Assembly (NCBI GenBank): GCA_019637815.1
Contig: JAHBUZ010000001.1
Location: forward strand, 151,865-215,864
DNA: 64,000 nucleotides
Direction of reading: 5' to 3'
DNA from: Chloroflexota bacterium
Lineage (GTDB): Bacteria > Chloroflexota > Limnocylindria > Limnocylindrales > CSP1-4
Within the stretch, counting starts at the first letter, position 1. Every line of letters begins with the position of its first letter. The notes beneath the pieces were generated by a model. It saw only the letters and a list, made by a program, of their open reading frames with translations, searched no databases and had not been told where the DNA came from. A program made the translations under genes and the position numbers. Shown one piece after another: positions 3,841 to 22,589 of the stretch.

Positions 3841-3984
3841 GTCCTGGGTGACGGTCGCGCACCACACTCCCACGCTCACCGTGGGAACCGGGGTCAGGGT
3901 GCAAGCCCCCTTCGAGCTGGAGCCTGATCGAAGCGGCCACATCCCGGGGTGGACCCACAGCGAATGGCGGCAACGCACAGGGAC
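3841..3984 (+). ncRNA. Candidate 6S (SsrS)-like RNA
   Basis: By-eye rod-like fold with a central open region. Ends GUCCUGGGUG and GGCGGCAACGCACAGGGAC, plus an internal GAACC, resemble 6S hallmarks as I recall them. Not tested with a covariance model, and the strand is inferred. Confidence 0.45.
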
Positions 3985-3986
3985 CT

Positions 3987-4358
3987 TGGTGGAGATGGGG
4001 GAGAGTCGAACTCCCCGTCCAGAACCTTCAGCCGGGAACCAACTACGAGCGTGTCCAGCGATTTATCGTCAGATCCGTCATCCGGCACTGGCACCGTGCG
4101 GCGGACCCCAGTCACGTCCCCTTGCGGGCTTTACTCCTGGCTACGCGACGATGACCAGGAGCGCATCCCCGCTGGATGACGCTTCCACAGCCCGCGGGGA
4201 TGAGGCTGCTTCCACGCTCACCTTACTGCCTCAGGCAGCGAGGGCGAGAGCAGGCTGGCGGTTGCCAGTTACTTCGTTTTGCCGCCTTTTTACGAGGCCA
4301 GACGGCACCTCGGCTCGCGCTTCCCGGGGATCCGACCCTGTCGAGACCACGCATCCCC
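3987..4358 (-). ncRNA. ssrA: tmRNA; tag peptide (A)GNRQPALALAA
   Basis: 5' GGGGATG pairs with 3' CATCTCC-ACCA with a G3.U wobble. T-arm GGGAGTTCGACTCTCC. UAACU precedes the resume codon. Tag ORF at 4266..4231 ends ALALAA-TGA. smpB lies nearby. Confidence 0.97.
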
Positions 4359-4367
4359 AAGACCTTG

Positions 4368-4376
4368 ACTATATCA
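4368..4376 (-). promoter_or_regulatory. Extended -10 promoter of ssrA (TGa-TATAGT)
   Basis: TATAGT at 4373..4368 lies 9 nt before the mature tmRNA 5' end. Confidence 0.75.
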
Positions 4377-4378
4377 CT

Positions 4379-4392
4379 CGAACACCTGTTCG
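4379..4392. promoter_or_regulatory. Gram-positive-type LexA/SOS box in ssrA promoter
   Basis: CGAAC-ACCT-GTTCG has perfect palindromic arms matching CGAAC-N4-GTTCG and sits between the -35 and -10 positions. Confidence 0.65.
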
Positions 4393-4416
4393 GCCACCAG
4401 GGTCCCGGCCGACGGC

Positions 4417-4893
4417 TCAGTAGCGGAGGAGCGTCATCACCGCACCGACGCGGTTCAGCATCAGCAGCCCGACGGGCAGCGTGATGAGGAGGGCGCACAG
4501 GGACCACGCGATGCCCATGTAGATGGCACCCAGCCACCAGCCCACGAGCAGGAACCAGGCAGCCCGGAGGATCATCGGCAGCTGGTCGTGGGGCTCACCG
4601 CGGACGTACCGGACGCCATCCCGCACCTCGGTGACATACCCCTCGCTCCGCGGTCGGAGCGTCATGACGGCCGGGATGCGGTCGAACAGGGCGAAGCCGA
4701 CGGGTAGACCGACGATGGTGACGCAGCAGAGGTAGGCGACGGTGATGACGATCGAGCTGAGCCACCAGCCGATGAACAGGAACCAGAGCGCCCGGATGAG
4801 TAGCCCGACGTCGTTCGATTCGCCCGGGAGGACGAGCACGTCCCTCGTGCTCGATGTCTCCTGCTGCTGCGCCTTCGGCCAGGGATAGCTCAT
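4417..4893 (-). CDS. YccF-domain inner membrane protein (duplicated DUF307-like halves)
   Basis: Two repeats of RAxWFLxxGWWL...CxxxITxPxG. Start placed at ATG 4893. Confidence 0.8.
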   Translation of the reverse strand: MSYPWPKAQQQETSSTRDVLVLPGESNDVGLLIRALWFLFIGWWLSSIVITVAYLCCVTIVGLPVGFALFDRIPAVMTLRPRSEGYVTEVRDGVRYVRGEPHDQLPMILRAAWFLLVGWWLGAIYMGIAWSLCALLITLPVGLLMLNRVGAVMTLLRY

Positions 4894-4984
4894 CACTGCG
4901 TCCTTGCTGTTCCCGCGCCGCCGGATCCATCGAGACAGCGAAGGATCCGGGTGCCGACACGCAGCGGATGCCGCATCACGGACC

Positions 4985-5446
4985 TCAGCGGCCGCGTTGG
5001 AGGTCGGCCAGCTCGCGTTGCAGGTCGCGCCGTGCATCCCGCTCCGCGATGTCCTGGCGCCGGTCGTGGAGCTGCTTGCCGCGCGCGACGCCCAGCTGCA
5101 CCTTGGCACGTCCGCGATCGTCGATGTAGAGGCTGAGGGGCACGATGGTCATGCCCTTCGACTTCACGCGGCCGATGAGCTGGTCGATCTGGACGCGATG
5201 AAGGAGCAGCTTCCGATCGCGACGCGCCTCGTGGTTCCATCGATTGCCCCCGGTCCAGGGCGCGATGTTGACGCCCACCAGCCAGGCCTCGCCGTGCTCG
5301 ATGCGGGCGTGGGAGTCCTGGAGATTCACCTTCCCGGCGCGGATGCTCTTGATCTCGGTGCCGCGCAGCACGAGACCCGCCTCGAGGGTGTCCTCGATGG
5401 TGTACTCGTGACGGGCCTTGCGATTGACGGCGATGGTCTCGCCCAT
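4985..5446 (-). CDS. smpB: SsrA-binding protein SmpB
   Basis: IAVNRKARHEY, EAGLVLRGTEIKSIR, RKLLLH, ARGKQLHDRR. AGGAG SD before ATG 5446. Confidence 0.97.
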   Translation of the reverse strand: MGETIAVNRKARHEYTIEDTLEAGLVLRGTEIKSIRAGKVNLQDSHARIEHGEAWLVGVNIAPWTGGNRWNHEARRDRKLLLHRVQIDQLIGRVKSKGMTIVPLSLYIDDRGRAKVQLGVARGKQLHDRRQDIAERDARRDLQRELADLQRGR

Positions 5447-5560
5447 GACTGGACTCCTGGGGACGATGGACCGGCCATGGCCGGACGTCGGATGGTGGTC
5501 GGGCTCGAGCGCCTGCGGCGACACTCGGTCGCGCCGGCGAAGCAGCGTGAGACCCGGACG

Positions 5561-5596
5561 CACGAACGCCGGCCCACAGTGGACCGGCGCTTCGTG
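5561..5596 (-). terminator. Long GC-rich hairpin between the small ORF and smpB (terminator/attenuator-like)
   Basis: CACGAA-CGCCGG-CCCAC / GTGG-A-CCGGCG-C-TTCGTG inverted repeat. No U-tract. Confidence 0.5.
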
Positions 5597-5626
5597 GCTG
5601 GCTTCACCACCCGAAGGGGCTACCGA

Positions 5627-5674
5627 CTAGCGGGCCGCCTCCGAGGTGGTGCAGCGCTGGCTACTGTCACTCAC
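5627..5674 (-). CDS. Small ORF MSDSSQRCTTSEAAR (putative leader/small peptide)
   Basis: TAGGCT -10 at 5708..5703, perfect SD GAAAGGAGGTGAT at 5692..5680, GTG at 5674 and TAG at 5629..5627. Confidence 0.55.
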   Translation of the reverse strand: MSDSSQRCTTSEAAR

Positions 5675-5756
5675 TGCACATCACCTCCTTTCGTTCCCGA
5701 TGAGCCTAGACCGATCCCGCGCTCGATGCAAGAGGCGATCCTGCGCGTCAGGTCCG

Positions 5757-7226
5757 TCAGGGCAGGATGGACGCGTCGGGCGAGCCGCCACCCGGCCCGA
5801 CCGACCCTTCGGGCGACCCGCTGCCCGGTGCCGGCGACGCGCCAGCCGGGACCGTCGAACCGGCCGGCGATGGGCTCGGCGCTGCGGACGTTGACGGGAC
5901 ATCGCCCCGGATCGCGGCCTCGAGGATCGCGAGCGCCCGCTCGAGCTGCGGGTCGATGTCGTCCACACCGCTCGGTGCCACGACCTCGTCCGGTGTGATG
6001 CCCACGCCGTGGATCCAGGTCTGGTCCGGCGTCAGCCAGCGCGCCACGGACAGCCGGAAGCCACCCGCGTCCCCGGACAGCAGGTGCCACTGCTGGACCG
6101 TGCCCTTGCCGAAGGTGGTCTCGCCCACGAGCATGGCGCGATCCGCGTCCTGGAGCGCCCCCGCCACGATCTCGCTGGCGGATGCCGTGCCCCCGTTGAC
6201 GAGCACGACCATGGGCAGCGTCGGATCGGTGGCCAGGCCATCGGGCAGCGCCTCGTGCGGGATGGTCCGACCGTCCGCGTACTGGTCCCAGTAGATGGGC
6301 CCGCTGCCCACGAACTGGCTCGCGATCGACAGCGCGGCTTCCACGAACCCGCCGGGGTCATCACGCAGGTCGAGGATGAACGCACCCGCCCCGGCATCGA
6401 GCTGCTCCTGGAGCCGCGCCCGCAGCTCGTCCGCGGAGCCGCCGCTGAAGCCATCGATGCGCAGGTAGCCGACCGAGCCATCCGCGAGCAGCTCGGCCTG
6501 CACGGCCGGTCGCTGGATGACATCCCGGGTGATCGTCAGCTCCATGGGGCTGCCGTCGCGGACGATCGACAGCCGGACGGTGGTGCCGCGTGGGCCGCGC
6601 ACCCGTTCGACGACCCGGTCCACGGTGGATCCCGTGACGTCCTCGTCGTCCACGGCCACCAGTCGGTCGTTCGCCTCCAGGCCGGCCGCCTCCGCCGGTG
6701 AGCCGTCGATGATGCCCACCACGACCAGGTGGCAGGCCTCGCCGAGCGTGGTGCAGACGCCCCCCGAGTCGTCCAGCGACTGCATGGTGGCGCCGATGCC
6801 CTCGAACGAGCCGCCGATGGAGTCGAGGCTCTGGCGGTACTCGTCGGACGTCATGTACGAGGAGTACGGGTCATCGAGCGCCCCGAACATGCCCTGGATG
6901 GCGCCCTCCACGAGCTCCCTGGGGTCGTACTGGCCGACGTACTCCGTGGAGATCGTGCGGTACGTCTCCCAGAAGGGCTCGAACAGGGCCCGCTCGTCCC
7001 CCCCGGAACCGGGTGCCAGCGACTGCTGGAGGCCGAGCGTGAAGCCGGCCGCGAAGAGCGCCGAGCCCGCGAGCACCGCGACCAGGAACAGGGCAGCGAT
7101 GAGTGACCCGCGACCGGGCGGGGGTGGAGGCTGCCAGGCGGGAGGCTGGGACACCGGACCTGCCGACCAGCCGTTCGCGGGGTCGGGCATGCCGGACGGG
7201 TCGGTCGGCTCGGGCGTCAGGGACAT
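5757..7226 (-). CDS. ctpA: S41 family carboxyl-terminal processing protease (PDZ + S41)
   Basis: DDPYS, GIG, PDZ domain, ILDLRDDPGG, TASASEIVAGALQD, GETTFGKG. N-terminal TM anchor and Pro/Ser-rich tail. Confidence 0.92.
   Translation of the reverse strand: MSLTPEPTDPSGMPDPANGWSAGPVSQPPAWQPPPPPGRGSLIAALFLVAVLAGSALFAAGFTLGLQQSLAPGSGGDERALFEPFWETYRTISTEYVGQYDPRELVEGAIQGMFGALDDPYSSYMTSDEYRQSLDSIGGSFEGIGATMQSLDDSGGVCTTLGEACHLVVVGIIDGSPAEAAGLEANDRLVAVDDEDVTGSTVDRVVERVRGPRGTTVRLSIVRDGSPMELTITRDVIQRPAVQAELLADGSVGYLRIDGFSGGSADELRARLQEQLDAGAGAFILDLRDDPGGFVEAALSIASQFVGSGPIYWDQYADGRTIPHEALPDGLATDPTLPMVVLVNGGTASASEIVAGALQDADRAMLVGETTFGKGTVQQWHLLSGDAGGFRLSVARWLTPDQTWIHGVGITPDEVVAPSGVDDIDPQLERALAILEAAIRGDVPSTSAAPSPSPAGSTVPAGASPAPGSGSPEGSVGPGGGSPDASILP

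Positions 7227-18775: not shown

Positions 18776-22589
<3,814 letters not shown>

Follow-up and report, generated by a model that had tools for sequence, protein, structure and literature searches.

The DNA analysed here, a 64-kb window (the whole stretch under study), comes from a 4.07-Mb metagenome-assembled genome (MAG) of an uncultured soil Chloroflexota of the class Ca. Limnocylindria. The assembly comprises 61 contigs, has a GC content of 71% and is 87% complete. Near one end of the window, three co-oriented genes lie on the minus strand: smpB, which encodes the protein partner of tmRNA, a gene for a YccF-like inner-membrane protein (yccF), and ssrA, the gene for tmRNA itself (Table 1). 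Between yccF and ssrA lies a perfect palindrome of the type bound by LexA in Gram-positive bacteria, with 24 nt from the yccF stop codon down to the palindrome. Its position between smpB and ssrA notwithstanding, yccF is context and no regulated target. Gene calls beyond the window were made with a crude GC3-based ORF filter, and Pfam or NCBIfam confirmation applies only to the genes named.

Table 1 Coordinates of the ssrA locus and of related features. Positions without a prefix are those of the window.
Feature	Position	Strand	Evidence or detail
64-kb window	C1:151865-215864		
ssrA (tmRNA)	3987-4358	minus	ARAGORN, tag GNRQPALALAA; Rfam RF00023 full length, 116.9 bits, model positions 1-374
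Extended -10 of the ssrA promoter, TGATATAGT	4368-4376	minus	hexamer TATAGT at 4373-4368, TG at 4376-4375
Predicted LexA operator (SOS box, Gram-positive type)	4379-4392	plus strand reads CGAACACCTGTTCG	CGAAC-N4-GTTCG, zero mismatches
Palindrome core, GAACACCTGTTC	4380-4391		
Putative weak -35-like hexamer, TGGCCG	4391-4396	minus	3/6 consensus, 17 nt from the -10, overlaps the first 2 operator bases
yccF (YccF-like inner-membrane protein)	4417-4893	minus	Pfam PF03733 YccF, 3.4e-11
smpB (tmRNA protein partner)	4985-5563	minus	upstream of ssrA; PF01668; NCBIfam SmpB equivalog, 205.6 bits
Second GAAC-N4-GTTC core, CGAACTGGGGTTCG	20645-20656		inside a 657-aa coding frame
lexA	C13:67535-68182		LexA equivalog TIGR00498, 199.7 bits against a cut-off of 111; also PF01726
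recA	C23:142950-143990	minus	PF00154, 454.9 bits
SOS boxes of lexA and of the repair and other genes named in the text	C13:67495, C16:39563, C16:60769, C16:66590, C15:7981, C4:70293, C22:13573, C34:34521, C34:77424		
Two paralogous 102-aa proteins	C61:124358-124666; C1:28234-28542		no Pfam family
GAAC-N4-GTTC match, GTGAACGGATGTTCGAT	C23:148322		
129-aa ORF	C23:148661-149050		NCBIfam: no hit
tmRNA of another lineage (410 nt)	L161:1560-1999		Rfam, 114.2 bits

The palindrome in the putative ssrA promoter

Read along the minus strand, the region upstream of ssrA is composed of TGGCCG (4396-4391), the palindrome CGAACAGGTGTTCG (4392-4379, that is CGAAC-AGGT-GTTCG), AG, TGA, TATAGT (4373-4368), CAAGGTCTT and GGGG, with the 5' end of the tmRNA at 4358. 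The full upstream region reads TGGCCGAACAGGTGTTCGAGTGATATAGTCAAGGTCTT and is followed directly by the start of the tmRNA, GGGGATGCG. A TG one base upstream of TATAGT makes the -10 of ssrA an extended one. The end of the box is separated from the -10 hexamer by 5 nt, and the hexamer from the mature tmRNA 5' end by 9 nt. The sequence-only reading from which this work departed had described a perfect LexA-type box just upstream of an extended -10 of ssrA, at roughly -18 to -31. The first part is confirmed by the letters themselves, and the second holds if transcription starts about 7 nt past the -10, which would place the box at about -31 to -18.

The remainder of the promoter is less canonical. 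In relatives the -35 position is occupied by TTGTCG, and the promoters of g18-like and several g1 sequences (g1 being the genus of the source genome) contain TTGTCGAAC. A consensus sigma-70 scan of positions 3900-5800 called no promoter at ssrA, where the -35 matches only 3/6 consensus bases, so the ssrA promoter is placed by its extended -10 and by the fixed position of that element in relatives. A terminator scan of the same interval found none between yccF and ssrA; read-through from smpB-yccF is thus possible and could supply tmRNA regardless of LexA. The 67-nt intergenic RNA does not fold significantly (z = 0.03). This value, together with the lack of any terminator-like site, rules out a terminator or leader structure as the function of the palindrome, and its location upstream of the predicted start, combined with the lack of an RNA fold, points to a signal acting at the level of DNA.

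Chance expectation was estimated with a first-order Markov model of the 4.07-Mb genome. The extended motif CGAACN4GTTCG occurs 10 times against 2.9 expected, which corresponds to 2.9e-5 expected occurrences per 40-nt window, and the bare core GAACN4GTTC 37 times against 16.9 expected. Several of the genomic core copies fall in coding regions or in the T-arms of tRNA genes. Because the core is enriched merely about two-fold, the motif by itself is weak evidence, and the case rests on its context and its conservation. We also scored all genome positions with a position weight matrix (PWM) built from 10 sites of the genome with the ssrA site left out. The ssrA site reaches 20.3 bits and rank 15, as compared with 24.0 bits for the lexA operator; one of its flanks is GC instead of AT, which accounts for its score below those of the best operators.

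Within the window, GAAC-N4-GTTC is found at only two places, starting at 4380 and 20645. The second core lies inside a long coding frame, ranks outside the top 60 PWM hits and is probably a chance match. The region upstream of smpB contains neither a GAAC-N4-GTTC nor a site among the top 60 PWM hits, and with smpB lacking a box induction would extend to just one half of the rescue system.

LexA and the SOS boxes of the genome

Both regulatory partners expected of an SOS system, LexA and RecA, are encoded in the genome. The 216-aa LexA displays an Ala-Gly cleavage site (AAG-G) as well as GDSM and TLKR motifs, which we take to carry the catalytic Ser and Lys as they do in E. coli LexA. The lexA gene is preceded by the promoter TTGACG-gtCGAACAGACGTTCGg-TATGGT, in which the operator fills the 17-nt spacer, and GAAC-N4-GTTC was present between a TTGACA -35 and the -10 in 80/80 lexA loci fetched from related Limnocylindria MAGs. 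The lexA operator, CGAACAGACGTTCG, and the ssrA palindrome on its minus strand are nearly identical, and the predicted place of both is the 17-nt spacer between -35 and -10. The two promoters differ in their upstream elements: the lexA -35 is consensus-like (TTGACG/TTGACA) and its operator starts 2 nt after it, whereas at ssrA the final 2 nt of a weak, putative -35 fall within the operator and the promoter depends on its extended -10.

Perfect boxes are also found directly upstream of uvrB, dnaE (pol III alpha, replicative-type), lhr, and genes for an Rv2578c-like radical-SAM protein, a RecA-fold ImuA-like protein and a YjzC-like protein. These perfect boxes are flanked by AT-rich sequence, and their consensus is roughly aTCGAAC-N4-GTTCkAT. 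Boxes with one core mismatch precede uvrA and a gene for a DECH-box helicase. At recA, no site with two or fewer mismatches occurs in the 250 nt upstream and no high-scoring PWM hit lies nearby. The prediction that lexA, recA and uvrA would share the motif of the ssrA promoter therefore stands for lexA, with a perfect box, and for uvrA, with one mismatch, and fails for recA within 250 nt. Since recA lacks a box over that distance, this regulon departs from the textbook one. Expression of recA may be constitutive, may result from co-transcription starting further upstream or may answer to another regulator. Directly upstream of recA there is an ORF that is small and very basic.

GAAC-N4-GTTC is the LexA box, also called the Cheo or DinR box, of Gram-positive bacteria including Bacillus subtilis, Mycobacterium tuberculosis and Clostridium (PMC3323433; PMC4234289). 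The boxes described here resemble that system in their palindromic core, spacing, predicted promoter overlap, autoregulation of lexA and use at uvrA and uvrB, and depart from it in the target ssrA, in the host, an uncultured Chloroflexota class, and in a recA without a box. The SOS set of this Limnocylindria MAG is closer to the mycobacterial damage regulon than to that of Bacillus.

Conservation and distribution of the ssrA box

Conservation of the box upstream of ssrA in relatives had been proposed as a check on the LexA reading. The tmRNA genes of 60 relatives were identified and the sequences upstream of them inspected, which gave 34 same-genus species with a recoverable ssrA. A perfect GAAC-N4-GTTC precedes ssrA in 19 of these 34 species, and in 18 it occupies the same position, with its start 31-36 nt upstream of the mature 5' end and its end 5-6 nt short of a TAnnnT -10. 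The nineteenth, G025, carries an insertion of about 17 nt that shifts its box to -52, and decayed remnants of the box are recognizable at the usual position in G004, G036 and G014. When the sequences are anchored on the box, no variation is seen at the eight core positions or at the G that follows GTTC (2.0 bits each). The N4 positions have about 1 bit, as compared with a mean of 0.35 bits over the 22 columns upstream. This pattern of columns is a classical phylogenetic footprint. The N4 of the ssrA boxes begins with R and ends with Y, like that of the other operators. In nearly all same-genus species the mature tmRNA 5' end is preceded, at a distance of 9-10 nt, by a TAnnnT hexamer, and among those with a box the extended -10 TG has an invariant G.

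The box is missing in 15 of the 34 same-genus species, though nearly all of them keep lexA, and is found at ssrA in 0/13 members of a neighbouring family of 1.1-Mb genomes, in which lexA is retained. LexA was identified in 56/61 relatives, with absences confined to incomplete or fragmentary bins. Loss of the ssrA box is thus not loss of the SOS system, and loss of lexA is ruled out as the cause of box-less ssrA genes. One relative, G022 (L004, L035), has two tmRNA genes with the tags ADQRDLALAA and GNRQPALALAA and is probably a mixed bin.

For a wider survey, genomes were scanned with a pattern consisting of a perfect-core box, 15-32 nt, and a tmRNA 5' end of the form GGGGNTG-N3-6-GGNNTCGAC; the reversed pattern served as control. 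The arrangement was detected in at least 17 of 401 genomes of the class, representing at least 5 of 65 genera, and the reversed pattern gave 0 hits in the same 401 genomes. By genus, it was present in 3/8 sampled genomes of the source genus g1, 8/8 of g18, the single genomes of g19 and g14 (1/1 each), and 4/7 of g46, which belongs to a different family. Among Chloroflexota outside the class, 0/354 genomes match this perfect-core, fixed-5'-end pattern. Because the pattern demands an intact core and one form of tmRNA 5' end, these counts are lower bounds, and some Chloroflexota tmRNA genes were perhaps missed. In public metagenome contigs, at least about 50 of the 80 matches examined represent ssrA promoters of the Limnocylindria type that carry the box (33 g18-, 15 g1- and 2 g14-type), showing a constant relation of box to -10 and varied N4 and flanks; most of the other matches examined are not tmRNA genes. 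Conservation in relatives is therefore borne out within the genus, in the further genera and in the metagenomes.

Two architectures were observed. In g1, g18, g19 and g46 the box is in the promoter spacer, 5-8 nt upstream of the -10, often overlapping a TTGTCG -35. In g14-type sequences (L146 = G162, L206, L212) the order is the opposite one, the box lying 5-6 nt downstream of a TAGAAT -10 and covering the expected start site. Both are repressing positions. The gene upstream of ssrA also varies: yccF in the source genome, smpB in g18, g46 and g14 (there preceded by a peptidase-like ORF), and a divergent oxidoreductase gene in g19. Because the upstream gene changes with the lineage, ssrA alone accompanies the box in every case. 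A divergent gene as the target of the operator is ruled out, as a divergent neighbour is present in g19 only.

On a tmRNA tree of low resolution, the presence of the box requires at least 9 state changes. The g14, g19, g18 and g1 lineages all include box-bearing members, and g46 has a branch whose length prevents its placement. This distribution fits a putative operator in the ancestor of this part of the family that was later lost repeatedly. ssrA would thus be a facultative regulon member subject to turnover, not a fixed one. It lies outside the cross-phylum LexA core set of lexA, recA, uvrA, uvrB and translesion polymerase genes, with the arrangement in 0/354 genomes outside the class and no paper found that names ssrA as a LexA target, and would be a lineage-specific recruit to the LexA regulon.

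A separate observation concerns a tmRNA of another lineage (L161, Table 1), in which CGAACGCGCGTTCG lies 2 nt upstream of a TATCAT -10. This site suggests that an ssrA-LexA link may exist outside Limnocylindria.

Predicted control of ssrA by LexA

Taken together, the motif, its near identity to the genome's own lexA operator, its position relative to the -10 and its selective conservation make it likely, in our judgement, that the palindrome functions as a genuine LexA operator and renders ssrA damage-inducible. From these observations we infer LexA binding, repression, induction and a physiological benefit as follows. In an undamaged cell, a LexA dimer at about -31 to -18 would block access of RNA polymerase to the extended -10 and the -35, and so would lower transcription from the dedicated ssrA promoter; basal tmRNA might come, more speculatively, from incomplete repression or from smpB-yccF read-through. 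Upon DNA damage, RecA on single-stranded DNA would trigger self-cleavage of LexA, the operator would be cleared and synthesis of tmRNA would rise. Damage in these bacteria would thus probably be followed by more tmRNA. The likely benefit would be increased rescue of ribosomes stalled on truncated or non-stop mRNAs, where the truncated mRNAs could arise from RNA polymerase halted at lesions or from damage- or SOS-induced nucleases cutting mRNA. Concerning the evolution of this arrangement, we lean toward direct LexA control of ssrA as a selected, probably ancestral trait of a large soil and freshwater group of Limnocylindria, realized in two architectures.

Several features count against this control. 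Repression of an abundant housekeeping RNA is unexpected, and the weak -35, the labile distribution, the moderate PWM score and the box-less smpB and recA point the same way. In one alternative, an ancestral site still binds LexA with little physiological effect, ssrA being fed by read-through or a leaky promoter while the site drifts to loss. The lack of the box in 15 of 34 same-genus species, the three decayed remnants, the nine or more state changes on the tmRNA tree, the lack of a terminator between yccF and ssrA and the 20.3-bit score of the site would all be compatible with such drift. Neutral decay, however, would not be expected to preserve what is seen where the box is present: all 8 core bases are invariant while N4 and flanks have diverged, the box occurs in 8/8 genomes of g18 as well as in dozens of distinct sequences from metagenomes, and g14-type genomes have a second placement over the start site. 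We consider a vestigial site of this kind unlikely.

The same weak promoter elements bear on whether the palindrome acts on ssrA at all. It could be read by another factor, or could serve mainly as a LexA roadblock or insulator against smpB-yccF transcription and not as a repressor site for ssrA, and the poor -35, the failure of the scan to call a promoter and the co-oriented upstream genes without a terminator would suit either role. Yet the lexA, uvrB and dnaE operators of the genome have this identical motif, the -10 keeps a fixed distance from the tmRNA 5' end whatever the upstream gene, and the distance from box to -10 is held at 5-8 nt, which leaves this explanation improbable. Least probable of all is a chance occurrence of a short, GC-poor palindrome that LexA does not bind. 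The bare core does exceed expectation only about two-fold and has many copies inside genes and tRNA T-arms, but so few CGAACN4GTTCG starts are expected per 40-nt window (2.9e-5), and the same promoter position recurs so widely (18 species of the genus, 4 further genera and at least about 50 metagenome contigs, against 0/401 for the control), that coincidence is hardly credible.

Control of ssrA by LexA can be compared with what is described elsewhere. In Caulobacter crescentus the transcription of ssrA is cell-cycle-regulated, which illustrates that ssrA is not always constitutive; a regulated promoter is common to both cases, the signal being the cell cycle there and, by our prediction, DNA damage via LexA here. 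A physiological link between DNA damage and trans-translation is likewise present in Vibrio cholerae and E. coli. The portions of Krin et al. 2018 (PMC5963079) used here describe a rise of tmRNA abundance of at least 2-fold after mitomycin C in V. cholerae and a role for tmRNA in tolerance of crosslinks between DNA and protein in E. coli. No LexA box at ssrA is reported for either species in those portions, and the effect there may be indirect, whereas a direct operator is predicted here from sequence alone.

Full-text literature outside subscription journals yielded no description of a LexA box upstream of the tmRNA gene ssrA, and an earlier report is possible. The paper on the C. difficile LexA regulon mentions ssrA, tmRNA and smpB 0 times (PMC4234289). 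The sequence-only reading had not recognized ssrA as a standard regulon member, which agrees with the literature, as we found no listing of it as a LexA target. Its suggestion that trans-translation may belong to the SOS regulon gains support from the box at the genome's own lexA and from conservation at ssrA, and applies to the RNA gene ssrA, not to smpB. This type of operator, its repressor and the regulatory logic are already known, and it is the target ssrA that appears new. Comparative genomics gives the predicted LexA-ssrA link good support; its mechanism is an ordinary one and its occurrence is limited to certain lineages.

Accounts of SOS regulons usually list genes for repair, recombination, mutagenesis and cell division, and a conserved operator at ssrA would add translation quality control to these outputs. 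The sensitivity of trans-translation mutants to DNA-damaging agents has long been noted; a LexA-ssrA link would give it a direct transcriptional basis, in which damage leads to truncated transcripts and these are met by more tmRNA. If the proposed control is correct, ribosome rescue by trans-translation would be a genuine SOS output in Limnocylindria, and ssrA would be, as far as we have found, the first stable housekeeping RNA gene known to belong, as a conserved member, to a LexA regulon. That a single bacterial class shows repeated loss and two placements of the operator would also reveal the turnover of a regulon at fine scale, and from the boxes listed above the SOS network of Limnocylindria, a soil lineage that is abundant but uncultured, can be sketched for the first time.

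Further boxes in the genome lie near genes without a family assignment. The two paralogous 102-aa proteins in Table 1 both start with MSALAVGPG.TVRIP, and the box at one of them is the top-scoring site of the genome (33.6 bits) while that at the other scores 20.0 bits; both are candidate SOS regulon members. Another GAAC-N4-GTTC match, on the contig that carries recA, is located about 330 nt upstream of a 129-aa ORF. By its N-terminal sequence the product may be a PIN/VapC-like toxin, and it might be a damage-induced RNase that creates substrates for tmRNA.
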